A stretch of DNA of 64,000 bases from Opitutales bacterium (GTDB taxonomy: Bacteria; Verrucomicrobiota; Verrucomicrobiia; Opitutales; PNEW01). The notes beneath the pieces were generated by a model. The model was not told where the DNA came from, ran no database searches, and worked only from the letters and a program-made list of their open reading frames with translations. The stretch lies in assembly GCA_965197745.1 (NCBI GenBank), contig CBDANS010000007.1, forward strand, positions 1,760,001 to 1,824,000, read 5' to 3'. A program made the position numbers and the translations under genes. Every line of letters starts with the position of its first letter. Within the stretch, counting starts at the first letter, position 1. Shown piece after piece: positions 12,191-41,137 of this stretch.

Positions 12191-12293
12191 ACTTCATAAA
12201 TAAATATTATAGATCTCATAAGTAATATTACTATATTACTTTAAGGCCCTGATTAAGTATTGAGTTTTTATACTTTGTGTGTATATTAAACTC

Positions 12294-13173
12294 ATGAATA
12301 TAACACAAATATTTAAAAGTTTTCCAACTCAAGAATCCTGCATAGAACATCTTGAAAACGCACGCTGGAAAGGAACACCAACCTGCCCGTATTGTAATTC
12401 TACCAATACTGCTCCACACGAGCATCGACACCGTTGCTACACTTGCAAGACTTCATTTAGTGTAACGGTTCGCACTATTTTCCACCATACACACATACCA
12501 CTTCAAAAGTGGTTCTTAGCAATTTCATTGGTGTTAAATGCAAGAAAAGGTATTTCGGCTTTACAGCTTTCACGTGATTTAGAAGTAAACAAGAATACTG
12601 CTTGGCGTATAGCAATGCAGATTCGTAAAGCTATGACACAATTCCAACAACGTGAATTATTGACTGGTATTGTGGAAATGGATGAAACTTACATTGGCGG
12701 GAAACCAAGGAAAGGAACAAAAGGGGACGGTTCCGATGGCAAGCATAAAACAGGTGGTGGAACAAAGAAACCACCTGTAATAGGTGCAGTAGAACGTGGA
12801 GGTAAGGTAACTGCCAAAGCTACTGATAAGACTGAGATGAAGGGGGCTCACATGCGTGCTTTCGTCCGTGAACGTGTAGATACAAAAAAAACAAGGTTAA
12901 TGACTGATGAATATAAAAGCTATATTGGCATGTCTAAATTATTGCCCCATTCCGTAATTGAACATAAAGAATGGTATGTAAATGGGGATATTCATACCAA
13001 CACCATAGAGGGCTTCTGGGCGCTTTTAAAACGAGGTATGTTCGGTCATTCACAGTGTATCCCGTAAACACTTACAACGCTATGTAGACGAATTTTGCTA
13101 TCGTTTTAACCTACGCAACGATGACGCATCTAATGCTTTTGAACTCACCATTAATAGAGGGCTAGGAATATGA
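12294..13173 (+). pseudogene. IS1595-family transposase, frameshifted near 13048
   Basis: Zn ribbon CPYC...CYTC and catalytic EMDETYIGG / MTDEY / HTNTIEGFWALLKR. The conserved tail HSVSRKHLQRYVDEFCYRFN continues in another frame to TGA at 13171-13173. Confidence 0.92.
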
Positions 13174-14069
13174 AAAATAAGAAACCATTAAAAGTTGTCG
13201 CTGGAACACCAGACAAACCATTAATAATAGGAGACACTCATATTTCCTGTTATGTGCTTGAAAATGAAACCCGTGTCTTAACCCAAACGGGATTTCTAAC
13301 CGCTATTGGCAGATCTCCTTCTCCTATGGCAGGTAGGGGTGCTATGTCCGGAATCGATAACCTACCCACTTTTTTGGTGTCTAAGAACCTTAAACCATTT
13401 ATAACAAAAGAGTTAACAGCTTCGATAACTTCGATACAGTTTAGAATGAAAAAAGGAGGATATGCAATAGGGTATGATGCTAAGTTATTACCCCAAGTTT
13501 GTGAAGTTTACCTTAAAGCACGTGATGCAGGTGCGCTATTACCATCACAACTACATATTGCAGCACAAGCTGAAATTCTCATGCGTGGTCTCGCAACGGT
13601 CGGCATTATCGCCCTTGTAGATGAAGCAACTGGATATCAGAAACTAAGGGAGAAACATGCCCTTGCTACAATCTTAGAGAGATTTATAGCTGATGAACTT
13701 CAATCTTGGACTAAAACGTTTCCCTATGAATTTTACAGACAAATCTTCCGCCTTAGAAATTGGTCAGATCCTGATGGTGTCAAAAAACCGTCAGTGATTG
13801 GACACTATACAAACGATTTTGTATACGATCGCTTAGCTCCGGGGATACTAGACGAACTCAAGAAAATCAATCCTAAAACCCCAAGAGGATATAGGAAGGC
13901 AAAACATCACCAATGGTTTACACCTGACATTGGCCACCCAAGACTCAAGGAACACTTAGCCGCAGTGATTGCGCTTATGAGGGCTGCTGCAAATTGGGAT
14001 GATTTCCACAGAAGTTTAAATCGTGCCTTCCCAAAGATAAATGAAACAATGGAGCTACCTTTCGACTAA
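13170..14069 (+). CDS. P63C-domain protein (IS passenger)
   Basis: CYVLENETRVL, VGIIALVDEATGYQ, WTKTFPYEFY, YDRLAPG and KHHQW motifs match my recollection of P63C proteins. ATGA overlap with the transposase stop. Confidence 0.85.
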   Translation: MKNKKPLKVVAGTPDKPLIIGDTHISCYVLENETRVLTQTGFLTAIGRSPSPMAGRGAMSGIDNLPTFLVSKNLKPFITKELTASITSIQFRMKKGGYAIGYDAKLLPQVCEVYLKARDAGALLPSQLHIAAQAEILMRGLATVGIIALVDEATGYQKLREKHALATILERFIADELQSWTKTFPYEFYRQIFRLRNWSDPDGVKKPSVIGHYTNDFVYDRLAPGILDELKKINPKTPRGYRKAKHHQWFTPDIGHPRLKEHLAAVIALMRAAANWDDFHRSLNRAFPKINETMELPFD

Positions 14070-18850: not shown

Positions 18851-19828
18851 ATGCCGAAAATTTCAGTCTATCGAGCCTTGTTCTGGCTTCTGTCATTTAC
18901 CTTGTGTGTGGTAATTGTGCTTTTTGCAGATGAAAACACAGATCGGGAATTCTTAAAGAATTCCCGGGATGAGCTGAAACGTCTTAAGGAAATTTCGCAA
19001 AAGCCCGATAATGTATCGGAAGTAGGAGATAGTCCCTTTGCACGTCCGTTTAAACAAGCTCCGGTCCTTCCTATGCCAGGCATCCGCACTCTTTCAGCCA
19101 TACAAGAAAAAATGAATAATGAATCTCAATCAAGTGATAAAGAGAATAACTGGCTGCTATCAGGAATTAATAAACTTTCCGGCGTAGAGACACCCACCGA
19201 TGAAGAAAAGAAGGACCTCCTGGAAATGAAAGGAGAATTGAGTCTGCTGGATCGTTTTGTGTTGGAGCAGGAGCTGACCAAAAATAATGATCGAATCGCA
19301 CTGGTTCATGAATTGGATGATGAATCCAATGGTGATATTTTCGAGCAGAGCAATATTATGTTTGGCAATAGACCCGGAGGTGGCTTTTTTGATCTGGGGA
19401 ATATAGAGTCTCAAAGCGATCACACCTTTTTGGGTGAGCCGTCAGACCTCGCTATTAATCCTTATCTGGATAATCTTGAACGTTATTTTTTGACGATCGA
19501 TCTTCGAGGCAATGCTCCTTTATCCTTGAACATGCAAACAGATCATAACCCACAGGATTGGCAATTACCAAGCACTAGTGCGACAAGTGGATTACGCGAA
19601 GGATCAAAATCCCTCAAGTTTAACAATTCCTATTTGCGCGAGAGATCGTTTGCCATTGAATTATCTGGTCCGATGCCTGGTAGAAATGAAAATTTAACGA
19701 GTAAAAATAAATATTCCAGGCCTGATCGTTTATCTGAATCACTCGATCCTCATCACTCACCTGTCAATACGAGAACAGTCAATGAGCGCACTTATAAGCC
19801 ACCCGAGGATAATTTAAAGAAATGGTAA
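18851..19828 (+). CDS. Hypothetical exported or membrane-anchored protein; native C-terminus displaced by IS element 2
   Basis: N-terminal hydrophobic segment. Removing the IS and one direct-repeat copy gives ...DNLKKYMPQLDSF* (stop 21168-21170) instead of ...DNLKKW*. Confidence 0.75.
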   Translation: MPKISVYRALFWLLSFTLCVVIVLFADENTDREFLKNSRDELKRLKEISQKPDNVSEVGDSPFARPFKQAPVLPMPGIRTLSAIQEKMNNESQSSDKENNWLLSGINKLSGVETPTDEEKKDLLEMKGELSLLDRFVLEQELTKNNDRIALVHELDDESNGDIFEQSNIMFGNRPGGGFFDLGNIESQSDHTFLGEPSDLAINPYLDNLERYFLTIDLRGNAPLSLNMQTDHNPQDWQLPSTSATSGLREGSKSLKFNNSYLRERSFAIELSGPMPGRNENLTSKNKYSRPDRLSESLDPHHSPVNTRTVNERTYKPPEDNLKKW

Positions 19829-19847
19829 TTAATAGATTAGGGCTTGA
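19824..19847 (+). repeat. Left terminal inverted repeat of IS element 2
   Basis: GGTAATTAATAGATTAGGGCTTGA; overlaps a TTGACA hexamer at 19844-19849. Confidence 0.95.
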
Positions 19848-19893
19848 CAAAATGGATAAGATTCACAAGCTTAGGATAAAAGGAGAAAATAAA

Positions 19894-20763
19894 ATGAACC
19901 TAATATCCGTATTAAAAAAATATCCTACTCAACAAGCTTGCATCGACCATTTAGAGGTTGTCAGGTGGAAAGGAAAACCGTGTTGTCCGCACTGTGAAAG
20001 CGATCATGTAGCGCGTAAGAAGGAAAAAAAGAGAGTTGGCCGATGGAACTGCCACGATTGCCAGAACAGCTTTAACGTGCTTTCAGGGACAGTATTTCAG
20101 GGAACTCACGTCCCGCTTCAAAAATGGTTCCTTGCAATTGCGTTGATGGTAAATGCAAAGAAAAGCTTATCGAGTTGCCAGTTGGCTCGCGATCTGGAAC
20201 TAAATCAAATGTCTTGCTGGTATATGCAACAGCGTATTCGTGCGGCTATAGCAAGCAAGGAGCGTCGTTTCCTGAATGGTGTAGTTGAAATGGACGAAAC
20301 TTATATCGGTGGGAAGCCACGACGCAGTAAGGACGATGATGACCTTCCAAAGCGTGGTAGGGGAACCAAGAAAACTCCTGTTATAGGCGCGGTAGAGCGT
20401 GGTGGTAAAGTTATAGCCAAAGTTGTCGATGATCTGAGCAGATTTGGTGTACTACGTTTTATTAACAGCGCAACCGATGCTGATGAGACTATCTTAGTTA
20501 CCGATGAATTTCCCGCATACAAGATTCTCGATAATCTCTTGGCTAGGGTCACTATCAATCACAGTGAGAGCTATGTAGACGGTGATGTTCACACCAACTC
20601 AATAGAAGGGTTTTGGTCTCACTTGAAACGTGCTTGGTTTGGTCAGCACCACCATTATAAAAAGCTTTACATGCCTTTATACATCGCTGAGGCATGCTGG
20701 AAGTATAATCAACGGGAACGCAATGACGGATTCAGTGCATTCCTTAATATGGCGATGAATTGA
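19894..20763 (+). CDS. IS1595-family transposase (apparently intact)
   Basis: AGGAGA SD before ATG 19894; CPHC...CHDC zinc ribbon; EMDETYIGG / VTDEF / HTNSIEGFWSHLKR; tail YIAEACWKYN. Confidence 0.95.
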   Translation: MNLISVLKKYPTQQACIDHLEVVRWKGKPCCPHCESDHVARKKEKKRVGRWNCHDCQNSFNVLSGTVFQGTHVPLQKWFLAIALMVNAKKSLSSCQLARDLELNQMSCWYMQQRIRAAIASKERRFLNGVVEMDETYIGGKPRRSKDDDDLPKRGRGTKKTPVIGAVERGGKVIAKVVDDLSRFGVLRFINSATDADETILVTDEFPAYKILDNLLARVTINHSESYVDGDVHTNSIEGFWSHLKRAWFGQHHHYKKLYMPLYIAEACWKYNQRERNDGFSAFLNMAMN

Positions 20764-20777
20764 AAGGAATTAATACA

Positions 20778-21097
20778 ATGACAGAAGAAGAGAAAGATCG
20801 TGAGATTGGTAAAATGTATCGCGAACATGGAGAACAAAAAAATCACTTGAAATGCCTTAGATCAAAGGCAAGATCAATGAAGCAAACTATATAGATGGGG
20901 TTAGCAATCTGCTTGACGAGCGTCCCTTTAATTACGCCGTGGGAAGAGGGAAATTATTGTATTTCGTGCCAGGAACAGGTGGGGCGCGTAAGGAAATTTC
21001 TTGGGCTTCCGAAGAAGAACTTTGCCAGCTAATAGAAGAGATTGATTCGACGAAGCAGAGAATTGATGAGCTTAAAAATGAGTTGGGTCTAGATTGA
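20778..21097 (+). pseudogene. Frameshifted ~105-aa coiled-coil passenger protein
   Basis: AAAGGA SD. MTEEEKDREIG...MKQTI stops at 20892-20894, but deleting one TA from ACTATATAG joins it to DGVSNLL...IDELKNELGLD*, which ends just before the right IR. Confidence 0.6.
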
Positions 21098-21112
21098 AGC
21101 GCGTATTAAACA

Positions 21113-21136
21113 TCAAGCCCAAATCTATTAATTACC
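21113..21136 (-). repeat. Right terminal inverted repeat of IS element 2
   Basis: TCAAGCCCAAATCTATTAATTACC followed by the duplicated AAAGAAAT. Confidence 0.95.
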
Positions 21137-21155
21137 AAAGAAATATATGCCCCAA

Positions 21156-21239: not shown

Positions 21240-22145
21240 ATGTCGATAGGTCTATTCTTTTCAGGGCAGGGCTCACAAAAAATTGGGATGGGAGCAAGCC
21301 TGTATGAAAACTCGGCAGTGGCAAAAGATTTGTATGAAGAAGCCGCTAATATCCTGGATTGGGATCTAGCCAAAATATCTTTTGAAGGCCCAGAGGATCT
21401 TCTTATGGAAACGAGGATCTGCCAACCCGCACTCTTTGTCTGCGGGTATGCGATTTACAAATTATTGCACGATTCCGGTAAATTAGAAGACTTAAAGGTG
21501 GTGCTAGGATTAAGTTTGGGAGAGATAACAGCACATGCCGCAGCGGGAACTTTTGATTTTGCTTCAGGGCTTAAAATAGTAGCTGAACGCGCTCGATTGA
21601 TGCAGATGGCTTGCGAATTAACAGATGGCGCCATGGCCAGTCTCATTGGAGGGAATAGTGAATCCATCGCTGAGCTATGCGCAAAATATGACGTAGAAAT
21701 TGCCAACTTTAATAGCCCCGGGCAAACCGTTATATCGGGTGAAATAAAAAAAATTGAAGCAGCGGTTGAAGCGGCGAGTGATGGCGAATTTCGCATGGTC
21801 GTGCCTCTTAAAGTTGCCGGAGCTTATCACAGCCGATTAATGAATTCAGCAGCGGAAAAATTTGAAAACTACTTGAAGAACTACACATTCAATGAACCAG
21901 CAGTTAAAGTTTTATCGAATACCACGGGTAAAGCGGTATCTGGTCCCGAGGAGGTTGCTGATTTATTGGTTAAACAGATCGTTACTCCAGTCCAGTGGGT
22001 CAACTGTATGCGGTATGCCGCCGCTGAGGGTGTTACTCAATTTTTTGAATGCGGTCCGGGAAAGGTCCTGACCGGGTTGGCGCGGCGGACGGAAAAATCC
22101 TGGAAAGTGTCAAGTCGCTATGAGTACTCTGATATAATCCTTTAA
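21240..22145 (+). CDS. fabD: Malonyl CoA-ACP transacylase
   Basis: FSGQGSQ, QPALF, GLSLGE, ANFNSPGQ and AGAYHS motifs. Confidence 0.95.
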   Translation: MSIGLFFSGQGSQKIGMGASLYENSAVAKDLYEEAANILDWDLAKISFEGPEDLLMETRICQPALFVCGYAIYKLLHDSGKLEDLKVVLGLSLGEITAHAAAGTFDFASGLKIVAERARLMQMACELTDGAMASLIGGNSESIAELCAKYDVEIANFNSPGQTVISGEIKKIEAAVEAASDGEFRMVVPLKVAGAYHSRLMNSAAEKFENYLKNYTFNEPAVKVLSNTTGKAVSGPEEVADLLVKQIVTPVQWVNCMRYAAAEGVTQFFECGPGKVLTGLARRTEKSWKVSSRYEYSDIIL

Positions 22146-27013: not shown

Positions 27014-27898
27014 CTACCCTTCCATGCGCTGAAGGAATTTTCGTATTAAGGGCAGAATATCATCGGTGCTATCTTCGAGTACATAATGACCTGCTTCTGA
27101 GAAGCGATGTACCTCGGCCCGAGGGAAGTAGTATAACCACATCTTCAAAAAGTGATGATTAAAGCAGAAATCACGTTCTCCCCAAAATATGGAAATGGGA
27201 TGATCTTTAAATTTAACTAGACCATCTTGAATTTTTTGCATTTGGGCATAGCTGAAATGATGAGGATGCATAGGTATATCTTGAACAAAACGCAATTGAG
27301 CGATCCGATTATGCCAATTATTATAGGGAAAAAGGTATCCCTCTTTAATATTTCCGGTGAGTCCGCCTTTTCTTCCCGAAGCCATAGTTAAAGCACAACG
27401 AGAAAAAAAATTTAAAAGTCGTATAACCACGGGCCCCAAAAAAGGGGCACGGCATATATTAATACGGAAAGGGATCCGGTGAGATAAAAAAGCGGCAGAA
27501 TTAAGGACTATAATTTTTCCTACTCTTTCCGGCATCAATTCTGCTAATCCCATTCCAATGGCAGCGCCCCAGTCATGTATAACGAGATGAAATTGTTTAA
27601 GGTTTAGATCTTCAACAAGCTTGCGCATATTATGAATATGAGTAGTAAGCCTATAAGGATAATCCTGAGGTTTGCTCGATAAACCGCAACCCATGTGATC
27701 GGGTGCGATGCAGCGATACCCATTGCGAAGGTCGAGGACTAGATTGCGATAATAAAATGACCACGTAGGATTTCCATGCATCATGAGCACGACCTCCCCC
27801 TCCCCTTCATCTAAATAATGTAATTTATTATTATCTATATCCAGATAGTTTTTTTTAAATGGATATATTGAGTGTAGCGATTCGGGGATAGTGTGCAT
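27014..27898 (-). CDS. oleB: OleB-like alpha/beta hydrolase (haloalkane dehalogenase-like; beta-lactone decarboxylase family)
   Basis: HGNPTWSFYYR, nucleophile elbow HDWG, FVQDIP and AGHYVLED motifs; lies 7 bp downstream of oleA. Confidence 0.8.
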   Translation of the reverse strand: MHTIPESLHSIYPFKKNYLDIDNNKLHYLDEGEGEVVLMMHGNPTWSFYYRNLVLDLRNGYRCIAPDHMGCGLSSKPQDYPYRLTTHIHNMRKLVEDLNLKQFHLVIHDWGAAIGMGLAELMPERVGKIIVLNSAAFLSHRIPFRINICRAPFLGPVVIRLLNFFSRCALTMASGRKGGLTGNIKEGYLFPYNNWHNRIAQLRFVQDIPMHPHHFSYAQMQKIQDGLVKFKDHPISIFWGERDFCFNHHFLKMWLYYFPRAEVHRFSEAGHYVLEDSTDDILPLIRKFLQRMEG

Positions 27899-27905
27899 AT
27901 ACAGG

Positions 27906-28940
27906 TCACATTGATAATGCCATCATCATGCAGCTGAGACCGCTACCGATTCCCAGTAAGGCTGTATTGGATCCAGGTTTCATTAATCCTTTTTCTCTAG
28001 CCATAGCAAGGGTCAAAGGTAGAGAGACGGAACCAACATTGCCCAAAATATCGAAAGTTGAATAATCTTTCTTTAAGTCTAGATTTAACGCTTCATAGAG
28101 CTGCCGTTGATGTGCCCTTCCTACCTGGTGACAAATAGTATTATCAGGTGTCGATTCATCCCACCCTGTTGCCGTTTTAAATTTATCCCATGCGCTTTCG
28201 GCAACACGGATACCGGCAATAAGGAGATTCTCGGAATCTGTTTGCATTTCCAGGGCATCATCGTCGGCCGTATCACCTTCGCATAATTCATTGTGTTGCG
28301 TATCGGTTTCGACTATGGCATTCAATATCCTGGGTGTATCTTCAGAAGCGAGCGAGGCATGGCAAAGTATAAAAGCGACAGCTCCGGCGCCGATTGTTAA
28401 ATTCGCAAAATATGGCTTAATTGAATTTCGATTCAGTTGGGGGTCGAGCAGCCGTTTTATCGTTCGTTCCACAAGGGGCCGTCCATTTTCACCCGCGACA
28501 ATCATAGCTCTGCCGATCTGCGCATTTTGAATCATACTGCTTGCCAGAGTGATGGCATTGAGAAATCCCAGGCAGGCATTGGAAACATCAAATATTTGCG
28601 TGCCCATTCCCAGTCCAAGCTCACGATGAACATATGAAGCGCTGGCGGGTTCCAAGCGGTCTCGGCAAACGGCAGCATGAATGAGCATATCAATTTCTTC
28701 TTTTTTGAATCGCGTTTTGGAAAGAACTTTCTTTCCCGCCAAGGCACTGGCTTGTGAAGGTAATATTGGAAAGTCCCAGAATCGCCTCTCCTTGATACCG
28801 GTCATCATTTCGAGTCGACCAAAGGGAAGCCGTAACCGTTCATAAAGAGGGGCAAGTTTTTTCTCGATATCTTCAGAACTCCAGCATTCAGGAGGGAGAG
28901 CGTAAGCCATCGATTCAAGGCAGACGTCTTCGAACCGCAT
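27906..28940 (-). CDS. oleA: OleA-like thiolase-fold acyl-CoA condensing enzyme (KAS III family)
   Basis: RDRLEPASA (catalytic Glu), DVSNACLG (Cys), HQVG (His), GNVGSVSLP (Asn) and LGIGSGL motifs. Confidence 0.85.
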   Translation of the reverse strand: MRFEDVCLESMAYALPPECWSSEDIEKKLAPLYERLRLPFGRLEMMTGIKERRFWDFPILPSQASALAGKKVLSKTRFKKEEIDMLIHAAVCRDRLEPASASYVHRELGLGMGTQIFDVSNACLGFLNAITLASSMIQNAQIGRAMIVAGENGRPLVERTIKRLLDPQLNRNSIKPYFANLTIGAGAVAFILCHASLASEDTPRILNAIVETDTQHNELCEGDTADDDALEMQTDSENLLIAGIRVAESAWDKFKTATGWDESTPDNTICHQVGRAHQRQLYEALNLDLKKDYSTFDILGNVGSVSLPLTLAMAREKGLMKPGSNTALLGIGSGLSCMMMALSM

Positions 28941-28944
28941 TTTC

Positions 28945-29754
28945 TTATCTGTGGGTGGGACGCATCGCCTGCTCTACCACATCCTTATCAAAATAATTAA
29001 GATCCATACCCGCATTGACGGTGATGCCTTGTCCGTTTATTCCACTCGATCGTTCACTTAAAAGGAATACCGCGGTATCCGCGACTTCTCTCGTCTCTAC
29101 GGCACGTTTGCGAAAAGTGAGTTTTTCCGCGAAGAGGAAATTTTTAAGGTACCCCGGTATTCCTGCCGAGGCGCTTGTTTTTAAAGGAGCCGCATTAATG
29201 GTATTAAAACGAATTTCGGTATCGAGGCTAAAGGATTTAGCAAGATTGCGGACACATCCAGCAAGTGCTGATTTAATTGGTGACATATATCCATAATTTT
29301 CTGCGGTTACCAGATCAGAAGATATCCCAATGGATACGACAGAGGCATTACTAGCCAATAGAGGTTTAAATGCTCGGACTATTTCGACAAGAGAAAAAGC
29401 AGAAATCGCGGTAGCCTGTAAAAAATCCTTTCGTTTCGTCTCGTGAAAAGGTTTAAAACCACCGCTATAATTAGCATAGGCAATTGAATGGACGATCCCA
29501 TGCAGGGGGCCCGAATTCTTTTTTATTTCCTCAGCAATTTTATTTATCTGATCTACCTGTTCAACGTCACAGATGTAAACAGGTTTATTGCCAAGCAGCT
29601 TTGAGATTGTCGTTTTACGTTCATCAGAACGCACACTGTAAATAACTTTTGCTCCTTCCGATTCCAGTATTTCGCTGATGTGCCAGGCGATACTTTTTTT
29701 ATTGGCAACACCAAACACGAGAAAAGTCTTATTTTCTATACCAAGATAACTCAT
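28945..29754 (-). CDS. Enoyl-ACP reductase (FabI-like SDR)
   Basis: GVANKKSIAW, HSIAYA, catalytic YGYMSPIK (YxxMxxxK) and PLKTSAS motifs. Likely start MSYLG at 29754; the ORF is open to 29811. Confidence 0.9.
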   Translation of the reverse strand: MSYLGIENKTFLVFGVANKKSIAWHISEILESEGAKVIYSVRSDERKTTISKLLGNKPVYICDVEQVDQINKIAEEIKKNSGPLHGIVHSIAYANYSGGFKPFHETKRKDFLQATAISAFSLVEIVRAFKPLLASNASVVSIGISSDLVTAENYGYMSPIKSALAGCVRNLAKSFSLDTEIRFNTINAAPLKTSASAGIPGYLKNFLFAEKLTFRKRAVETREVADTAVFLLSERSSGINGQGITVNAGMDLNYFDKDVVEQAMRPTHR

Positions 29755-29832
29755 GCCTGAATATGATTGTAGGGGTAGCTGATAACTCCTTTCAAGGTGT
29801 ATGGTAGGCACCTCAAGCTATATTTGATAACC

Positions 29833-30270
29833 TCAATCCTCTTCTTTGATCAAGGCAAGGGCAAAATCAAGGCTTAATACAAGCTTATCTTTCTTCCTTA
29901 TCGTGCCATGCAAAAAATGAAAATGACTCAAGGTTTCTTTGAATACGACATTTATTGTTATTTTATCACCGGGCCGCACGATCTCTTTAAATTTAGCTTC
30001 TTTAATTCTCGAAAGAATGGGAGTAAGGCCCTCTCTTGATTTTTTGCCAGAGTCTAATTTCCTGGTAAGATAAATGGCGCCCGTTTGAAAAACTGCTTCG
30101 CAGAGCAACACTCCCGGCATTATAGGATTTCCCGGATAATGCCCATCGAAAAAAAATTCGCCCGCTTGAATCTCTCGTGTTGCCGTGATACTTTCAGCGG
30201 TGATTTCCGATATATCATCAACAAAAAGAAACGGGGGACGATGGGGGATGCTTTGAAATATTTCCTTCAC
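29833..30270 (-). CDS. 3-hydroxyacyl-ACP dehydratase (FabZ-like)
   Basis: IPHRPPFLFVD, FFDGHYPGNPIMPGVLLCE and VRPGD motifs. Confidence 0.92.
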   Translation of the reverse strand: MKEIFQSIPHRPPFLFVDDISEITAESITATREIQAGEFFFDGHYPGNPIMPGVLLCEAVFQTGAIYLTRKLDSGKKSREGLTPILSRIKEAKFKEIVRPGDKITINVVFKETLSHFHFLHGTIRKKDKLVLSLDFALALIKEED

Positions 30271-30336
30271 ATGGATAAATGTAAGACCCCCTCCCCTCTC
30301 AGTCTTTTTTCCAACAGAAAGTGGAAAGTTTACACT

Positions 30337-31812
30337 TTATACGGATGCTTTATTTTTCCGCAACCCCCTATTTACGCTATACTTTATATCGCAAAGAAAT
30401 TTATCAATTTTGTTGGCGGTGATAACGCCATAATTAATCGTTCCCAACCAGCCGGACATGATGATGCCTACAGAACCGGCGTGATAAAGGCCCTTGAGAT
30501 AATTAGGGAGGTCCATTGAAACTTTAAGTCCTTCAAATTTAGTGCCAAATGAGGTTCCCCCCAGGTGCTTAGTATAATGGTTTATGGTCCGGGGAGTAGC
30601 CGCTTCCACATGATCGAGTTTGCTTCTAATGTCAGGTATCAATTTTTCCAAGGTACGCAGTGAATCTTCAATAATGCGTTCTTTTTCGCGTTTATATTCT
30701 TCATCAGAAAGAACACTCCAATCCTCCCAATTACTATTAAGAGAACATACAATGCTGTACCTGCGTTCTTTGAGATGGGGCCGGGTTTCCGGGTAGTATA
30801 TCGAAAATGTCCTGCTCGTAGTATGCATATCTATGAGCTCTTCACTGGTAAAGTTTTCTGCATCCGAAGTAAATACGAGGTCACCGATAAAAGGTATGCT
30901 CTCTCCACGTTTTACCCCTAAATAAACCTGGCAGGAACTCGAATTGACGCGAACTTTCTCAGCTTCTTCAACAAACTCGGGAGGGAAATTTTCAGGACCG
31001 ACAAGCCGTTCAACGGTGTTTTTAATATTCGCGTTTGAAAGTATCGCTTTGCACTTTATCTGTCTGCCATTTACCTGCACCCCGGCAATTCGCTGCGTCG
31101 TATCATCTTTATTCGTGATTATCTTTTCGACGAGACAGCGTTTGCGCAGATCAACACCGTTTTTTTCCATTTCCTTAACCATATTTTTTATCAGCACATC
31201 GGTTCCACCCCTGAAAGTATAAACTCCCTTGCTCATAAAATTTGAAAAAACGATTCCATATGTGATTGCGGGATCATCAAGAGAGGACCCGTTGGCATAA
31301 GCTATGGGCTCCATAAGCAATCTTTTTATGTCATCACGGCCCGGGAAAAATTCATCAAATAATTCTCCCGTGGTCTGTTTAATTTCGTCATAAAAATTCA
31401 TGCTTTTCAGGTGATTGAAAAAGCCTTCTACCCGATCTCTTGCCACTTTGAAGCGATCGACAAATATTCGGGTAAAATCGCTGCGGTCAAAAGTCGTCCA
31501 TATATTAAACTGGGGATTTATAAAACGGATGTTGCTTAGTTGAACAATAGAATCTGCAATTTCCTTCGTCCAATATTTACGACAGGATTTAATCATCCCT
31601 ATAGGGAAACCATGGAGAGAGATATCAAAAATGTGGCCACCGCGCCTGCGAAACCAGGTTGCGAGGCCACCGTACTGATAGTGGTGCTCCAGTAAAAGTA
31701 CTGAATGACCGCACTTTGCTAGATAATTGGCACCCGTCAAGCCCCCTAAACCACTGCCTATGACGATTACGTCATAATAATCCGATATATCCTTCAAAAA
31801 GTCTCTAGCCAT
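30337..31812 (-). CDS. Phytoene desaturase-like FAD/NAD(P)-dependent oxidoreductase
   Basis: [10 protein letters not shown]...[11 protein letters not shown]ossmann motif, EAATPRT and C-terminal GLYHAGS, typical of the CrtI/CrtISO/RetSat superfamily. Confidence 0.85.
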
Positions 31813-31924: not shown

Positions 31925-33175
31925 TTAAATACCCAGGGAAATACGATTAATGATGAAGAGCAGACCAAAGGTGGTAAAATATACCAATCCCAGGATACTC
32001 AATACCCGCATACCTTTACCTGGCCTGTGCGCTTCAGGGGTGTGAGAGGAAGTGATAAGACGATAATTCAGGTAGGCAAATGCAGGTGCCGCGAGAAAAG
32101 CTATTATGGTGGCAAGGTCGACGAGTGCCGTGAGGCGATTAAGAAAAGAATTAATAATGGTAATACTGATCAGGCAGCCAACTCCTATCCCTATCCACTG
32201 TAAATGACGGCTGCTTGTTTTAATATTTTTAAAGGCCAATTTAACGCCAACTGCCAGTGAACGAGGATAGGCATCAATGACCGTTAAAGTCGTTGAAAAC
32301 ATGGCCGTGAGGGCTGCTATAGCTATAAAAGGAGTAGCCCATTGGCCGAGATTATGGGTGTAAAGATTGACGATTTGGGCGGCAAATTTTGATCCCGATT
32401 TTTCAATCACTTCCCCTGATCCATGCATCACGAGATAACCCAGCATTAGAAAAATAACCGCTAATATAACGGTTAAAAAAAATCCGAAATTAAAATCAAA
32501 TTTCGCCTCTTTAATTGATGTTCGTCTCCCCAAATTTTTCTCATTAGCCATGATCCAGAGTGACTGCCAGACAGAAAGCTCAATGGGGGCAGGCATCCAA
32601 CCCATAAGGGCTATGATAAATCCCAGGCTCGCTCTGTTCCATGCGGAAGGGCTGTTAAATTCGCTTGCTGCGACCGGGCCGTGAATAAATGCCATGAGAA
32701 AAGCAATAATTGTGGCTAGAAAGAGGACAAACATGGTTGTTTTTATGCAATAGTCTAACCAAGTATAATGGCCGACTATTATAATGGTTGCGCAAATCCC
32801 CATAAGGATAGCACTCCAAATAGTCCCATTTAAATCAATACGAAAAATATTCTCCATTAGTCCGGCAGTGACAAAGGTTACAGCCGCGATACTGACAATT
32901 GCGCTTATTAAATTAAGGAGGAGGAATACATATAAAAAACCAGGACCTAACCGTTGGTAGCCGTGCAGTAAACTCTCTCCAGTAGCAACCGCATACCTAT
33001 GTCCGTATTGAAAAAAGGGGTATTTGAAAAGGTTTGCGAGTAGAATAATTACTATTAATTGAGTGCCATAATCGGCCCCAGCTCGTGTTGACTGGACTAG
33101 ATGAGACACACCAACGGCCGCGCCGGCCATTAGTATGCCAGGTCCTATCGTTTTAATAGCATTAAATTTAGGCAT
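31925..33175 (-). CDS. NRAMP-like divalent cation transporter family protein
   Basis: GPGILMAGAAVGVSHLVQSTRAGA, GWMPAP and AMFSTT motifs; roughly 11 hydrophobic segments. Confidence 0.8.
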   Translation of the reverse strand: MPKFNAIKTIGPGILMAGAAVGVSHLVQSTRAGADYGTQLIVIILLANLFKYPFFQYGHRYAVATGESLLHGYQRLGPGFLYVFLLLNLISAIVSIAAVTFVTAGLMENIFRIDLNGTIWSAILMGICATIIIVGHYTWLDYCIKTTMFVLFLATIIAFLMAFIHGPVAASEFNSPSAWNRASLGFIIALMGWMPAPIELSVWQSLWIMANEKNLGRRTSIKEAKFDFNFGFFLTVILAVIFLMLGYLVMHGSGEVIEKSGSKFAAQIVNLYTHNLGQWATPFIAIAALTAMFSTTLTVIDAYPRSLAVGVKLAFKNIKTSSRHLQWIGIGVGCLISITIINSFLNRLTALVDLATIIAFLAAPAFAYLNYRLITSSHTPEAHRPGKGMRVLSILGLVYFTTFGLLFIINRISLGI

Positions 33176-35895: not shown

Positions 35896-36681
35896 TTAAT
35901 TATCAGCCAGTTTACTTTTGGCAATGGTAACGAGCTGAATAAAAGATTTTGTTTCAAGAGAAGCACCGCCAATCAAGCCGCCATCGATGTCAGGTTGATC
36001 AAGTAATTCTGAAGCGTTACCGATATTCATCGAGCCACCGTAAAGAATTCTAATTTTTGATGCGGGCAATTCTCCGAAGTGCGAAGCGAGTGTTGCTCGC
36101 AATGCCAGGTGTGCTTCCTGGGCTATTTCCGGTGTTGCATTCCGGCCCGTACCAATGGCCCACACAGGTTCGTAAGCTATTACCAGTGAAGTATCTTTAT
36201 TAATGGTAACCCCTTTCACGGCACCGTCTAGCTGTCCCTTCAGAACCGCCATAGTTTTCCCCTGCTCCCGTTCCGCTAAAGTTTCACCAATGCAGATAAT
36301 GGGTTTGAGATTATTTGCTAAAGCAGCCAGGACTTTGGCATTGATGAAACTATCGGTCTCTCCAAATGAGGTGCGTCTTTCACTATGGCCGATAATAACA
36401 TAATCGCAAAAGAAACTCCGGAGCATCTCCGCCGATATTTCACCGGTAAAAGCACCAACGGATTCGGAGTGCATATTTTGAGCGCCAAGCTCAATGTTAG
36501 AGTGTTCGAGAACATTTGCGACACGCTCAAGGGCGATAAAAGGAGGACATACAATCACCGTGATATCTGTTTCTTCACCCACTGCATCAGTAATTTCAGC
36601 AGCGAGTACACCCGCTTCGACGGGTGTTTTGTTCATCTTCCAGTTACCGGCAATGATACATTTCCTGAGTTCGCTATTCAT
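35896..36681 (-). CDS. tpiA: Triosephosphate isomerase
   Basis: AGNWKM, GHSERR, AYEPVWAIGTG and YGGS motifs. Confidence 0.98.
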   Translation of the reverse strand: MNSELRKCIIAGNWKMNKTPVEAGVLAAEITDAVGEETDITVIVCPPFIALERVANVLEHSNIELGAQNMHSESVGAFTGEISAEMLRSFFCDYVIIGHSERRTSFGETDSFINAKVLAALANNLKPIICIGETLAEREQGKTMAVLKGQLDGAVKGVTINKDTSLVIAYEPVWAIGTGRNATPEIAQEAHLALRATLASHFGELPASKIRILYGGSMNIGNASELLDQPDIDGGLIGGASLETKSFIQLVTIAKSKLADN

Positions 36682-36710
36682 AACATATTTAAAATTTGAA
36701 AATTGCCTTA

Positions 36711-37913
36711 TTACTTTTTATCGAGAATTGAAACACCGGGTAAGATTTTACCTTCGAGGAACTCCAAGCTCGCGCCACCGCCCGTGCTGATAAAGGAAAC
36801 CTGGTCTGCATACCCACTTTTCCGCATGGCGGTCACTGAATCTCCTCCCCCCACAATTGAATTGGCTCTGTTGTTTTCCGACACTGCTTGAGCCATAGCA
36901 AATGTTCCTCTATTACAGGAATCAATTTCAAATATACCCATGGGGCCATTCCAGAGAATGCTATTTGCTTTGGCTATCTCCGATTGAAATAGTTGAATGC
37001 TTTTGGCTCCTATGTCTACACCTTCCCATCCATCCGGTATATCACCGGTGACTGCTTTGATTGTTCCCACTGTCCCGTTATCGAAATCAAGGGTGTCGGT
37101 AATAAGGTTGTCGACAGGAAGGATTAATTTAACCCCAAACTTCTCCGCTTTTTCCATACTGGATCTAGCCACTTCAATTTTGTCAGGTTCTACTGGGCTC
37201 TTCCCAGTTTTCCTGCCTTCAGCCAGGTAAAAAGTATAAGCCATCGCTCCACCGATAAGGATGGTATCTGCCCTTTCGATGAGTGAATTGATAACATTAA
37301 TTTTGCCACTTACTTTTGCTCCCCCCAGGATGATAACATAAGGTTTCTTTGGGGTCTTTGTTTGCTCCCCCAAATAAGTAAGTTCTTTTTCCATGAGAAA
37401 TCCAGCAACTTTAATCGGCATATATTTTGGGGCGCCGCTAATAGAGGCATGTTCCCGATGAGAGGCTCCAAAGGCATCGTTTACATAAATCTCACCTATT
37501 GCCGCCAAAGCTTCGTTGAATGTATTTTCATTCCCCTCTTCTTCTGCGTGGAAGCGTAAATTCTCAAGGAGGATAACCGAGCCAGATTTCATGTTTTTCG
37601 CGGCTTCTTCTACCTCAGCACCGATACAGTCATCAAGGAATATTACCGGACGACCTATTTTCGCGGCGAGATCAGCGGCAACCGGTTTGAGACTGTATTT
37701 GGAATTTCGTTTCCCCTTGGGTCTTCCTAAGTGGCTGCAAAGAATCAGTTTTCCTTCATGCTCAAGGATGTATTTAATGGTCGGTAATGCCGCTTCTATA
37801 CGTGTGCCATCTGTGATCTTGCCATTTTCGTCCAGAGGGACATTGAAATCAACCCGTAGCAGTACGCGCTTGTCAGTTAGATCAACGGACCTGATAGATT
37901 TAAATTTTTCCAT
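36711..37913 (-). CDS. pgk: Phosphoglycerate kinase
   Basis: RVDFNVP, SHLGRP, LLENLRF, WNGPMG and STGGGASLE motifs. Confidence 0.98.
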   Translation of the reverse strand: MEKFKSIRSVDLTDKRVLLRVDFNVPLDENGKITDGTRIEAALPTIKYILEHEGKLILCSHLGRPKGKRNSKYSLKPVAADLAAKIGRPVIFLDDCIGAEVEEAAKNMKSGSVILLENLRFHAEEEGNENTFNEALAAIGEIYVNDAFGASHREHASISGAPKYMPIKVAGFLMEKELTYLGEQTKTPKKPYVIILGGAKVSGKINVINSLIERADTILIGGAMAYTFYLAEGRKTGKSPVEPDKIEVARSSMEKAEKFGVKLILPVDNLITDTLDFDNGTVGTIKAVTGDIPDGWEGVDIGAKSIQLFQSEIAKANSILWNGPMGIFEIDSCNRGTFAMAQAVSENNRANSIVGGGDSVTAMRKSGYADQVSFISTGGGASLEFLEGKILPGVSILDKK

Positions 37914-38015: not shown

Positions 38016-39941
38016 TCAGACAACGGTGGCTAATGCTTCAGCAATTGGTCCTTGTGAGACGCCATCTATACGTAATTCTGCAGTTACGAGCTGACGACCA
38101 TGGCCATTGCCTGATGGCGCCCGCATTTTTAATTTGATCTCACCCCGGGCTTGGACATCCAGAGTAATAGAGACATATTCGTTTGATGCGATCCACCCTT
38201 CAGGAGGTAAAAGTCTCGCTTCGTATGTAGTTTGACGATCAAAATTATTTCGAAGAAGAAGCACGTAATCCAATTCCTTATCTGGTTCCACTTCTGCGAC
38301 ATAGGGCAACATCCTGACCCAGAATAAGTCAATATAGTGATCGGCGGGAGCGGCGACAAGGTTTCGGAAGGCCCGCTCTTTACTTATAATGAAGTTTGCA
38401 TACTCATCCAAAACCGACTTATCACAATTTAAAACATCATTATGACCTGGACAGATTAATTCCGGAGAAATTTTACGCATTACTTCTATGCATTGGCGAT
38501 GCATGTCCAACTGAAAACTATTACGCAAAACGGTTGTCTGGAAGGGTCTGCTTTCAGTTTTCAGCCCTACTAAAACATCCTGAAAGAAAATATTATCTCC
38601 AGTGAATGCGACTTTTCGGCCATCAATCTGGCCGGAAATTATTGAATGATATTCTGTCTGACCGGGAGCAAAGCAAACATCGAAAGAATATTCTTCCCAT
38701 TCAAGTCTTTCCTTATCCTTCAATTGACGGTCAATACGAATAGGTTGATGAAATGTACAGGGGGTAGATGCCCAAGCAGCCGGATCTTTCAATACTTGTG
38801 CTACTTGCTCTAAGGCAAAGCATTTTGTGCCGTAATATTTCTGCAAATGAGGAATACCACAGGTGTGATCATCATGAATATGTGTGGGGACCGCCAGGTC
38901 GATTGCCGTCACATCATAGTCTTCACGTAGTTCTTTCAAGTGATGTTCAATGAAGCGCATGGATTCAAAGCCATCATGATCAGAGCCAATGTGCATATTG
39001 GGTATAAATGCGTGCCCGTAATCGATGAACATCGCCTTGCCTGAATTGGAAAGAATGACATAGAAGTTGGAACAAGTCCAACTACCGCCCCATAAAAGAT
39101 GGGGTGAAAGGCGAACGAATTTCGGATTTGGTAGAAATGTTACTTCAGGATTGGATGATTTATCATTTGATATTCTTAATCCCCGCCCCAGAGATGCCAG
39201 GTCCATCAGTCGGGCTTCGAGCTGATCGATATCTTTCAAAGGTTTTTCTATGGGATCGCCATGCGAAGGTAAAAATAGTGGGGCCTTTTCAAAATCGCTA
39301 TTTTTCCATGATCGTCCGGCTACTATATCGCCATTGAGACAGTCTCTTAAGGCTTGAATAGACTGCAGTGTAAATATTACTCCTATCATATCGCCATAAG
39401 TATATTCCATGGCATGAAGTTGATAGAGGTGTCCCCCCATTGTCATTAAATCTCCGGTAAATCCAATCAGACACCCATCTATTGAGACCAAAAGCGTGAT
39501 CGAACCCAAGGTGTGGCCCTTTCCCGGTAAAATATAAAATTCATATCCTCGCCACTCAAAGCTTTCATAATCTATCAGCGTTGCCGATACGGGAATATTC
39601 TGACCTATAGAAAAGAACGTGTTGCGGTCATTGTAATTATCAAATACACGACGTGATTGCCAAAAAACCTCTGCTTTATCGAAAAGATGCTTTTCATATT
39701 GGGGTACCGCAATTTGCGTCCCGCCTGCAATCAGTTTGGAATCACCCCAGCACTGATCACGGTGATGATGGGTATGAAGTATCCACTCGATTTTACGACA
39801 CCCTATTTCAGAAAGTTTTTCCGCAACTATACCGGATCCGCTATCTATTAATAGGGCCGCATCACCTTCCTTAATTACGTAGACATTACAAGTATCTTTA
39901 ATCAGCCATAAATGTTCTGATAATTGTTTTAATTCCTGCAT
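38016..39941 (-). CDS. Tandem metallo-beta-lactamase-fold hydrolase
   Basis: Two MBL modules: THHHRDQ...GHT...FTGD...PSHG and THIHDDH...FTGD...PGH; beta-rich C-terminal domain. Confidence 0.85.
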   Translation of the reverse strand: MQELKQLSEHLWLIKDTCNVYVIKEGDAALLIDSGSGIVAEKLSEIGCRKIEWILHTHHHRDQCWGDSKLIAGGTQIAVPQYEKHLFDKAEVFWQSRRVFDNYNDRNTFFSIGQNIPVSATLIDYESFEWRGYEFYILPGKGHTLGSITLLVSIDGCLIGFTGDLMTMGGHLYQLHAMEYTYGDMIGVIFTLQSIQALRDCLNGDIVAGRSWKNSDFEKAPLFLPSHGDPIEKPLKDIDQLEARLMDLASLGRGLRISNDKSSNPEVTFLPNPKFVRLSPHLLWGGSWTCSNFYVILSNSGKAMFIDYGHAFIPNMHIGSDHDGFESMRFIEHHLKELREDYDVTAIDLAVPTHIHDDHTCGIPHLQKYYGTKCFALEQVAQVLKDPAAWASTPCTFHQPIRIDRQLKDKERLEWEEYSFDVCFAPGQTEYHSIISGQIDGRKVAFTGDNIFFQDVLVGLKTESRPFQTTVLRNSFQLDMHRQCIEVMRKISPELICPGHNDVLNCDKSVLDEYANFIISKERAFRNLVAAPADHYIDLFWVRMLPYVAEVEPDKELDYVLLLRNNFDRQTTYEARLLPPEGWIASNEYVSITLDVQARGEIKLKMRAPSGNGHGRQLVTAELRIDGVSQGPIAEALATVV

Positions 39942-40087: not shown

Positions 40088-41137
40088 TTAATTCGATAAA
40101 ATCTCAGCAACCTTTTCTATTAATTCTGCGCAGCGACAACTGTATCCCCATTCGTTATCGTACCAACTAATTAATTTAAAGAATCGGCTATTGAGCTCGA
40201 TCCCGGATCCTGCGTCAAATATGGAAGAGGCAGGGTCATGAATGAAGTCTGTGGAAACCACTTCGTCTTCGGTATAGACCAGAATCCCCTGCAACGGGCC
40301 TTCTGCTGCTGCTTTCATTTTATCGCATATTTGCGTATACGAAGTTTCTTTAACTGTTTTTACAGTGAGGTCGACCACCGATACGGTCGGTGTAGGGACG
40401 CGAAATGACATGCCGGTAAGTTTACCTTTTACTTCCGGTATGACTAAACCAACGGCCTTAGCCGCACCCGTAGTCGCCGGGATAATATTAATGGCCCCAG
40501 CACGGCCCCCTTTCCAGTCTTTACGGGAAGGGCCGTCATTTGTAAATTGCGTTGCCGTGTAGCTGTGAACCGTCGTCATCAACCCTTCGTCTATACCAAA
40601 ATTATCAAGAACAACTTTTGTAATGGGGGCCAGGCAATTAGTGGTGCAGGATGCATTGGATATAATCTCATCATCCGATGTGAGTGAATCATCGTTCACT
40701 CCAATGACTACGGTCTTTACATCTCCTTTAGCGGGAGCTGAGATAATAACTTTTTCAGCGCCAGCTTCGATGTGACCTTTTGCCTGGGTATCCTCAGTGA
40801 AAAGACCGGTTGATTCTAAAACAATCTCTGTGCCTAGCTCTTTCCATGGCATGGCGGCAGGACCGTCTCTTACGGATAGACATTTTATTTTATGCCCATT
40901 GACTACTAAAGTGTCATCTGCTTCTGCCTCAGGAGATGATTTTTCGCTGCTGACAGTTCCCTTGAAACGTCCTTGAACGGAATCATACTTAAGCAAGTAA
41001 GCAAGATTATCAGCAGGAACAAGATCGTTCAACGCAACGACTTCTAATTTCTGGTCGAGTAAATTTTTCTCGATGAGGGCCCGAAAAACGAGTCGCCCAA
41101 TACGGCCAAAACCATTAATTGCAATTTTTACTGCCAT
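40088..41137 (-). CDS. gap: Glyceraldehyde-3-phosphate dehydrogenase (type I)
   Basis: [21 protein letters not shown] and WYDNEWGYS motifs. Confidence 0.98.

Follow-up and report, generated by a model that had tools for sequence, protein, structure and literature searches.

What does a CrtI-like flavoprotein do in one operon with two enzymes of type II fatty acid synthesis (FAS) and with the oleA and oleB genes of olefin synthesis? This question is raised by positions 27014-31812 of a 64,000-nucleotide stretch of DNA, here called the window, which covers positions 1,760,001-1,824,000 of contig CBDANS010000007.1 in the Opitutales bacterium assembly GCA_965197745.1. Our results suggest that the operon holds a specialised tailoring module with a flavoprotein-FabZ core, functionally coupled to OleA and OleB, whose chemistry we infer. 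We place this module at the level of acyl thioesters on several grounds: the genes form a conserved operon, its FabZ and FabI are divergent, a dedicated ketosynthase (KS) and acyl carrier protein (ACP) accompany it in Opitutaceae, and flavoprotein-FabZ fusions occur naturally.

The listing of open reading frames (ORFs) in the window places five consecutive, co-oriented ORFs on the minus strand, whose outer coordinates match exactly those of the initial annotation:

30337..31812, minus strand, CrtI/CrtD-fold flavoprotein, 491 amino acids (aa)
29833..30270, minus strand, FabZ-like 3-hydroxyacyl-thioester dehydratase, 145 aa
28945..29811, minus strand, FabI-like enoyl-thioester reductase of the short-chain dehydrogenase/reductase family, 288-aa ORF from GTG 29811
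27906..28940, minus strand, OleA (acyl-CoA:acyl-CoA alkyltransferase family), 344 aa
27014..27898, minus strand, OleB-type alpha/beta hydrolase (haloalkane-dehalogenase-like subfamily III), 294 aa

The spacers were read from the sequence. There are 66 bp between the flavoprotein gene and fabZ, 4 bp from the fabI stop to the oleA ATG, and 7 bp from the oleA stop to the next ATG, the last two being the values given originally. The start of fabI is uncertain (GTG 29811 or ATG 29754); homologue alignments favour ATG 29754, which yields a protein of 269 aa and a fabZ-fabI spacer of 78 bp, as opposed to 21 bp with the GTG start. Downstream, malQ is convergent with the operon, and the G+C content across the region shows nothing unusual. 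A consensus scan of the window for promoters and terminators returned 20 promoter-like sites vs 18.1 expected from shuffled sequence and thus gave no usable signal. Matches at the level of family, structure and residues upheld the five gene identities that had been assigned (CrtI-like flavoprotein, FabZ, FabI, oleA and oleB). The catalytic motifs, described at the outset as intact, are so in OleA, OleB, FabI and FabZ and in the GSGLGG motif of the flavoprotein. We confirmed that the five-gene arrangement is a real operon-like gene set with intact catalytic residues.

The OleA protein scored 426.2 bits with NF006720, above the cut-off of 285, and 81-102 bits with FabH models, far under their cut-offs. 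It aligned over its full length with the Xanthomonas campestris (Xc) OleA structures (3ROW) at E 5e-62, compared with about 1e-15 for FabH structures. In the alignment, with the offset counted by hand, C123, E97, H271 and N301 are the equivalents of Xc C143, E117, H285 and N315; both the Cys-His-Asn triad and the OleA-specific Glu (Xc E117, supplied in trans) are kept. Some homologues carry the JGI label acyl-CoA:acyl-CoA alkyltransferase. The OleB-type hydrolase matched Abhydrolase_1 (2.5e-25) and fell below the cut-off of all NCBIfam haloalkane dehalogenase models. Its best match in the Protein Data Bank (PDB) was 8CKP/8OOH (DhmeA, of haloalkane-dehalogenase subfamily III, HLD-III) at E 4e-43, and its pentad N43, D109, W110, D243 and H271 aligns with N63, D129, W130, D258 and H286 of DhmeA. 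A passage of PMC10503415 places XcOleB in the same haloalkane-dehalogenase subfamily III as DhmeA. By these sequence criteria, OleA and OleB are bona fide members of their families, with predicted functions to match.

The only ole genes in the window are oleA and oleB. Two candidates for further pathway genes were tried and rejected. A signature for AMP-binding proteins, a PROSITE-style motif written as a regular expression and run on all ORFs of the related loci and on the six frames of the window, gave one match, which lies in a PP-loop/TilS-family ORF and is no OleC; a Pfam check of 85 representatives agrees. The family-12 epimerase beside the cluster, considered as OleD, is GalE (416.7 bits vs a cut-off of 262; OleD model, 71.7 vs 580). 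Separately, a small thioesterase of 4HBT fold is encoded at 57458-57856, about 26 kb from the operon; pfaT thioesterases of the 4HBT superfamily are linked to pfa/ole operons elsewhere, according to a section of PMC6463001.

The FabZ-like protein contains a FabA-like hot-dog domain (PF07977, 3.8e-24) and stays below the equivalog cut-offs (NF000582, 107.5 bits vs 113; TIGR01750, 101.6 vs 155.15). Its catalytic residues H44 and E58 do not vary among the 19 orthologous sequences compared, and we take the dehydratase to be a probable divergent paralogue type of FabZ. The FabI-like protein matched adh_short_C2 (7.3e-56) and Staphylococcus aureus FabI (E 2e-39), with which it shares the conserved Tyr-x6-Lys pair (Y173 and K180 in the numbering of the 288-aa ORF). 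Its best FabI model, NF006369, gave 179.4 bits vs a cut-off of 370; the reductase scores below the cut-offs of all 14 FabI/InhA models listed, among which the FabI equivalogs need 299-477 bits. Across 51 loci its median identity is 62.6%. An Atlas search meant to tell an extra from a housekeeping FabI returned generic FabI clusters (Planctomycetota, Verrucomicrobiota and Bdellovibrionota) and did not discriminate. When a FabZ profile was searched against the window and the related loci (2.4-22 kb each), the sole other match to fabZ was an ACP-FabZ didomain in one locus of the Cerasicoccus group (L051:14832-15920, minus strand). This protein of 362 aa consists of a phosphopantetheine-binding (ACP) part and a FabZ-like part; its gene adjoins one for a hexapeptide-repeat transferase and lies 3.4 kb from the unlinked flavoprotein of that locus.

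The flavoprotein carries an Amino_oxidase (Pfam, 2.1e-12)/NAD_binding_8 domain and an intact dinucleotide motif, GSGLGG, for flavin adenine dinucleotide (FAD). Its best family-level match in NCBIfam is the carotenoid isomerase CrtISO, and this match is weak; the scores with CrtISO (116.6 bits, cut-off 586.9), CrtD (105.7, cut-off 549.7) and crtI_fam TIGR02734 (79.1, cut-off 238.1) are all below threshold. An AlphaFold2 model of the protein (mean predicted local distance difference test, pLDDT, 88.3; predicted template-modelling score, pTM, 0.87) had as its top Foldseek match the CrtD structure 4REP (E 6.9e-24; query-normalised TM-score, TMq, 0.72; 19% identity), with the CrtI structure 4DGK at rank 15. 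Identity to solved carotenoid-enzyme structures is 15-19%. In a library of 1.84 billion cluster representatives, just 195 matched at E<=1e-30, mostly fragments, and a handful of full-length relatives were 39-52% identical. Because so few representatives were found in so large a library, we conclude from the sequence comparisons that the flavoprotein is a narrow and apparently distinct Opitutales/Planctomycetota subfamily within the large CrtI-like superfamily. The nearest homologues of both the flavoprotein and OleA come from Opitutales (Coraliomargarita, Lentimonas, Opitutaceae and Didemnitutus), the next flavoprotein relatives beyond that order bear Pirellulaceae, Planctomycetia or Aureliella names, and the closest clusters in the Atlas are Verrucomicrobiota and Planctomycetota. 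This range of Opitutales and Planctomycetota names matches the groups of PVC (Planctomycetes-Verrucomicrobia-Chlamydiae) bacteria with reported ole genes. The claim that carotenoid genes are lacking nearby held: neither phytoene synthase nor lycopene cyclase families occur among the 58 ORFs scanned across the window, and there are no carotenoid genes among the neighbour families annotated in related loci.

In a scan of one genome per species, at least 592 of 595 candidate stretches contained relatives of the flavoprotein, and the best 80 loci, with 61-72% identity, were kept. All taxon-bearing titles among these 80 are of Verrucomicrobiota, mostly Opitutales families, while one title reads "bacterium" only. 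Searching the loci with the window proteins by tblastn gave the following states:

Full order flavoprotein-FabZ-FabI-OleA-OleB, 38 of 80 loci
Truncated contig starting in the same order, 11 of 80 loci
Too short to show, 4 of 80 loci
Partial, with room for more, 4 of 80 loci
Flavoprotein alone, with 6.5-10 kb of room, 23 of 80 loci

The linkage, whose conservation the initial annotation had proposed to map, is present in 38 full and 11 truncated but consistent loci of the 80, which come from several deep Opitutales clades. Median gaps, as extrapolated, are 15 nt between flavoprotein and FabZ (n=53), 11 nt between FabZ and FabI (n=50), 6 nt between FabI and OleA (n=45) and 5 nt between OleA and OleB (n=38, the loci in which oleA and oleB are adjacent). 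The partners are lost from the linkage in a nested fashion, to which contig truncation contributes: FabZ is linked in 53 loci, FabI in 51, OleA in 45 and OleB in 38. The four partial loci are L004 (FabZ only), L049 (through OleA), and L059 and L079 (FabZ-FabI), and the flavoprotein-FabZ pair is the last still linked, in L004. Since the genes flanking the block vary from clade to clade, the five-gene block is kept as a unit.

We placed these states on a quick IQ-TREE phylogeny of the flavoprotein with 83 rows. Both Opitutaceae clades contain linked loci, as do the window/Moanabacter, DG1235 and Chordibacter clades and others. Unlinked loci gather mainly in three groups: they make up 9 of 10 rows of a Coraliomargaritaceae clade and 6 of 6 of one freshwater clade, and the Cerasicoccus group has three "alone" rows and one unknown among its four, one of them being L051. 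The loci with the flavoprotein alone include Cerasicoccus, Coraliomargarita and a freshwater clade. Coraliomargarita has OleA homologues although its flavoprotein is unlinked, so that in this genus the genes are dispersed rather than lost.

A larger version of the cluster was found in 17 Opitutaceae loci, where the five-gene block is immediately preceded, on its own strand, by genes for a FabF-like KS, an ACP and a second CrtI-like flavoprotein (for example at L021:6902-9951 and L012:6813-9934, and in 15 further Opitutaceae loci), with galE divergent and upstream of these added genes. The KS scores 315-320 bits vs a cut-off of 494, and the ACP is small and divergent (37 bits vs 71). The second flavoprotein is 23% identical to the first, occurs in 24 loci, and is present in two copies in L018. 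By tblastn, the KS, ACP and second flavoprotein are all absent from the window. An apparent second ketosynthase ("KSb", L012:5781-6812), located upstream of the Opitutaceae KS, was rejected as an antisense ORF of galE with no Pfam, PDB or KS similarity.

Among 120 flavoprotein-related proteins listed, two are natural fusions that each join an orthologous flavoprotein to an orthologous FabZ. The first, P0242 (625 aa), falls in a Planctomycetota-like branch and shares 42% identity (E 2e-33) with the window FabZ in its C-terminal FabZ part; its JGI names cover both halves. The second, P0391 (644 aa), is Opitutaceae-like, with a C-terminal FabZ part 45% identical to the window FabZ (E 1e-42); it retains a Met at the junction and could therefore be a read-through or an assembly error, a sign that P0242 does not show. 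The AlphaFold2 model of P0242 has two confident domains (mean pLDDT 84.7; pTM 0.72) joined by a low-confidence linker, from which no interface can be claimed. That the flavoprotein acts at the acyl-thioester stage is supported by the two fusions.

We hypothesize that this is a lipid operon in which OleA and OleB orthologues are co-transcribed with a tailoring module: the flavoprotein·FabZ unit and FabI would tailor double bonds on thioester-bound acyl chains, which OleA would then condense, a reading that we hold with a little less than even confidence. The FabZ-like dehydratase, whose family and catalytic residues are established above, would form an enoyl thioester on a substrate that we can only suppose. 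The CrtI/CrtISO-like flavoprotein, its physical association with FabZ supported by the two natural fusions, would then act, through desaturation or flavin-dependent isomerisation, to introduce, shift or preserve a C=C bond adjacent to the enoyl group. The FabI-like reductase would reduce the 2,3-double bond only, such that elongation continues and an isolated double bond is left in the chain. For elongation the Opitutaceae module would use its own FabF-like KS, ACP and second flavoprotein, and the lineage of the window would borrow housekeeping ones. OleA would condense two unsaturated acyl chains head-to-head, and OleD and OleC, presumably encoded elsewhere, followed by OleB, would convert the product to a long-chain (poly)unsaturated olefin.

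Several observations weigh against this proposal. An OleC-type AMP-ligase and an OleD-type reductase are absent from the window by Pfam and NCBIfam scans and a motif scan, and none of 85 ORF-family representatives (440-720 aa) taken from the 10-kb flanks of the 80 loci was assigned to the AMP-binding family; with no oleC or oleD seen, the pathway cannot be completed from the genes observed. Neither a thioesterase nor a ligase lies within the operon, and characterised OleA enzymes take acyl-CoA, while FabZ and FabI act on acyl-ACP. In 23 of the 80 loci the flavoprotein lacks all four partners over 6.5-10 kb, the operon genes are dispersed in between a quarter and a third of the genomes sampled, and the flavoprotein tree requires at least nine changes between the linked and unlinked states. 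L059 and L079 keep flavoprotein-FabZ-FabI without OleA and OleB, so the triad can exist apart from Ole. The median identity of the flavoprotein across related loci, 67.7%, exceeds that of OleA (56.4%), OleB (46.9%), MalQ (51-58%) and FabD (54-58%), which would also fit a core membrane-lipid role. The literature searched held no hydrocarbon analysis of Opitutales, and the fatty acids of cultured Coraliomargarita are ordinary, chiefly iso-C14:0 and C18:1w9c (PMC10288369). The idea of the initial annotation, that a dedicated FAS/flavoprotein module feeds OleA, thus stands in part: the conserved linkage, the divergent FabZ and FabI and the two fusions speak for it, and the lack of linked oleC and oleD and the solitary flavoprotein in 23 of 80 loci speak against it.

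In the main rival, it is the triad (joined in Opitutaceae by KS and ACP) that would supply Opitutales with unsaturated membrane fatty acids, in place of FabA/FabB or the flavoenzyme FabX; oleA and oleB would then merely share the operon and draw on the general acyl pool. Such a role would suit a flavoprotein that is near-universal (relatives in at least 592 of 595 candidate stretches), that is more conserved than FabD or MalQ, that stands alone in 23 loci and that keeps just FabZ or FabZ and FabI in L004, L059 and L079. Its best family match being a carotenoid isomerase, a dehydratase-isomerase fusion would mimic FabA, and C18:1w9c is abundant in Opitutae (PMC10288369). It leaves unexplained, however, the tight and conserved coupling of fabI, oleA and oleB (median gaps of 6 and 5 nt), and housekeeping synthesis of unsaturated fatty acids needs no dedicated ACP. 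A FabZ fused to the flavoprotein, and a FabZ and a FabI that score below their cut-offs, look unlike the main FAS enzymes, and the family range (Opitutales and Planctomycetota) matches the ole-bearing PVC taxa. We consider this explanation unlikely, though one to be reckoned with. We give less credence to a product that is no olefin at all and needs neither OleC nor OleD (a condensed lipid such as a long-chain ketone or a 2-alkyl-branched acid), for which OleA would perform the last condensation in a small type II FAS set or one resembling a polyketide synthase (PKS), and the OleB-type hydrolase would release or hydrolyse the product. The window lacks oleC and oleD, no OleC-like gene was found in the 10-kb flanks of the 80 loci, and with the Opitutaceae KS and ACP the set (KS, ACP, dehydratase, enoyl reductase, ketosynthase III-like enzyme and hydrolase) resembles a self-contained assembly line. 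Yet the hydrolase keeps the full HLD-III/OleB-type pentad and OleA its OleA-specific Glu, and the product of OleA, a free beta-keto acid, would be a poor substrate for FabZ and FabI. OleA on its own does yield ketones, as a passage of PMC6463001 records, but oleC or oleABCD is reported for Opitutae/Opitutaceae in parts of PMC5673642 and PMC10176705. On this evidence a product other than an olefin appears improbable.

The flavoprotein might instead act after condensation and, much as CrtI treats 15-cis-phytoene, desaturate or isomerise the long-chain olefin in the region of its central cis bond, with FabZ and FabI supplying ordinary chains. Phytoene and the Ole products are both formed by head-to-head condensation and have a central cis bond, the fold is that of CrtD/CrtI (4REP at TMq 0.72, with 4DGK also matched), and the flavoprotein is widespread in a class with reported ole genes. 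Against this, the tightest and last-retained partner of the flavoprotein is FabZ and not OleB, and it is to FabZ that it is fused in two proteins; in Opitutaceae it stands beside KS and ACP, and it is often unlinked from oleA-oleB. We therefore regard action after condensation as quite improbable. It is scarcely credible that the adjacency means nothing and that the flavoprotein is a carotenoid enzyme. Family-level matches do point to carotenoid enzymes, and a title cited in PMC10288369 presents Cerasicoccus, one of the Opitutae, as a carotenoid producer. But the flavoprotein scores far under all carotenoid equivalog cut-offs, no carotenoid genes lie within the 64 kb, synteny with tiny spacers is kept in 38-49 of the 80 loci, and natural FabZ fusions exist. 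In Cerasicoccus itself (L002 and L035) the flavoprotein is unlinked, and the analogous anammox proteins make no lycopene, as stated in part of PMC4790861.

Other features of the window and of the related loci are noted here as observed. Upstream of the operon by 112 bp, on the same strand, lies a gene for an Nramp-like transporter (31925-33175; the match is weak, 43 bits); only L004 and L015, the two closest loci, have it at the same place. In several non-Opitutaceae loci the flavoprotein gene directly follows, on the same strand, a gene for a conserved protein of about 240 aa without a Pfam family (L033, positions 2-727; homologues in L022, L039, L059, L066 and L075); no counterpart of it lies in the window. 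The other 53 ORFs of the window comprise, by Pfam, housekeeping genes including fabD, lepA, lepB, malQ, tpiA, pgk, gap, metK, ahcY and pckG, and none of them encodes a ketosynthase or a carotenoid, OleC, OleD or Pfa-type protein. A complete IS1595-family element at 19823-21137, about 100 bp upstream of fabD (21240-22145), encodes a transposase of 313 aa (19822-20763) and is bounded by terminal inverted repeats of 25 nt with 96% complementarity. A second IS1595 transposase, within 12279-14069, is 262 aa long, 49% identical to the first and apparently C-terminally truncated; a P63C-domain protein (13170-14069) adjoins it, and the region is possibly a remnant of mobile DNA. At 47374-48598, an NtrC-type regulator seems to have been split or frameshifted: of two overlapping minus-strand ORFs, one (48107-48598) contains only the latter half of a receiver domain and the other (47374-48204) an AAA lid domain. 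An intact paralogue is found next to the pair, at 49451-50752. Between pgk-tpiA (35896-37913) and gap (40088-41137), a 641-aa protein with two metallo-beta-lactamase-fold halves is encoded at 38016-39941. Neither transfer RNA nor transfer-messenger RNA genes (ARAGORN) nor Rfam families at the gathering score were found in the window.

Parts of this picture have precedents. Reports of ole genes exist for Planctomycetes and, within Verrucomicrobia, specifically for Opitutae (passages of PMC7158056, PMC5673642 and PMC10176705), and the last two papers also mention oleC, or oleABCD, in genomes of Opitutae/Opitutaceae. A survey of OleA gives homologues in Opitutae and three genomic contexts, none of which, in the portion of PMC7064751 at hand, has FAS or CrtI-like genes; no paper linking ole genes with CrtI-like, FabZ or FabI genes was found in the literature searched. 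When expressed alone, OleA gives ketones (PMC6463001, in part). The core idea is already in the literature: in Kuenenia and Desulfotalea psychrophila, Rattray et al. 2009 found FASII genes clustered with phytoene-dehydrogenase-like genes, fabF paralogues and radical-SAM genes, and for these two organisms they proposed, but never proved, an "extended FASII" route to polyunsaturated hydrocarbons (excerpts of PMC2649909). According to the same excerpts, D. psychrophila makes C31:8/C31:9 hydrocarbons, and no polyketide pathway to polyunsaturated fatty acids was found there. The kuste3603-3608 genes encode an ACP, FabZ, two FabF and a phytoene-desaturase-like protein, and Javidpour et al. 2016 found that neither Kuste3336 nor Kuste3607 takes the place of CrtI in making lycopene, and they could reconstitute no product (both from sections of PMC4790861). 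Carotenoid production has been described for some Opitutae, Cerasicoccus among them (a title cited in PMC10288369). What was already known is therefore the Ole enzymes, their presence in Opitutae and the CrtI-like "extended FASII" idea; what appears to be new is that the two systems are joined directly in a conserved operon, that flavoprotein and FabZ occur fused, and that the flavoprotein defines a narrow Opitutales/Planctomycetota subfamily.

How polyunsaturated hydrocarbons of the C31:8/C31:9 type are made without Pfa has been an open question since at least 2009 (per PMC2649909, in part), and the role of phytoene-desaturase-like genes in the anammox "ladderane" clusters is likewise open (per PMC4790861, in part). 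A flavoprotein/FAS module physically coupled to oleA-oleB, whose enzymes have since become known as builders of such hydrocarbons, makes the old question testable with five genes, in an operon that recurs in dozens of species-level Opitutales genomes, some of them from cultured genera. Should thioester-level tailoring ahead of OleA prove true, the flavoprotein could be a new flavin-dependent acyl-thioester desaturase/isomerase, useful for engineering unsaturated hydrocarbons; if the genes serve the membrane instead, they would show a new way in which bacteria make unsaturated membrane fatty acids. A wider and, on balance, doubtful extension is that PVC bacteria (Opitutales and probably Pirellulales-type planctomycetes) insert double bonds independently of both oxygen and Pfa, by means of a CrtI/CrtISO-fold flavoprotein docked on or fused to a special FabZ and of a selective FabI (with a KS and an ACP of their own in Opitutaceae), and hand the products directly to OleA to give polyunsaturated long-chain hydrocarbons, and that the same logic underlies the anammox and Desulfotalea "extended FASII" clusters. 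The operon would in that case be the missing genetic link between the "extended FASII" module and head-to-head condensation.

Set beside known systems, the operon combines features that are otherwise found apart. FabA/FabB and FabX resemble the proposed module in coupling a dehydratase to double-bond isomerisation or dehydrogenation on acyl-ACP, with a dedicated KS alongside as in Opitutaceae; the flavoprotein fold is another one, FabX of Helicobacter pylori being an enzyme of different fold that uses flavin mononucleotide, and the window genes are linked to oleA-oleB. With CrtI, CrtD and CrtISO the window flavoprotein shares the fold, the FAD motif and the overall length; it differs from them in scoring 79-117 bits vs cut-offs of 238-587, in lacking a carotenoid context and in being adjacent or fused to FabZ. 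The OleABCD olefin pathway, known from Xanthomonas and Shewanella, is matched in its X. campestris, Shewanella oneidensis and Micrococcus forms by a full-length XcOleA homologue, by an intact HLD-III-type OleB pentad and by the adjacency of oleA and oleB; unlike these systems, the window operon is without oleC and oleD and has a CrtI-like flavoprotein, FabZ and FabI instead. The clusters of Kuenenia stuttgartiensis (kuste3603-3608 and kuste3335-3352) and D. psychrophila likewise group type II FAS genes (ACP, FabZ and FabF paralogues) with phytoene-dehydrogenase-like flavoproteins that are not carotenoid enzymes, and they too are proposed makers of polyunsaturated chains or hydrocarbons without Pfa. 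The Opitutaceae version, with KS, ACP, two CrtI-like genes and FabZ in 17 loci, resembles them in gene content, and it extends the anammox parallel that the initial annotation had drawn and that the content of Kuste3603-3608 (PMC4790861, in part) bears out. The likeness is one of gene content; no radical-SAM genes were seen next to the Opitutales cluster, oleA-oleB is directly attached to it, and FabI lies inside it, whereas the FabI of Kuenenia and Desulfotalea is elsewhere in the genome (PMC2649909, in part). In the window there is no pfa-type gene, and FabD matches PfaA in the acyltransferase domain only. The Pfa-OleA linkage of Shewanella and Photobacterium, which leads to C31:9, offers the same principle of a dedicated unsaturated acyl source feeding OleA (PMC6463001, in part): there the source is a multidomain PKS-like megasynthase, and here discrete type II enzymes and a flavoprotein would serve.

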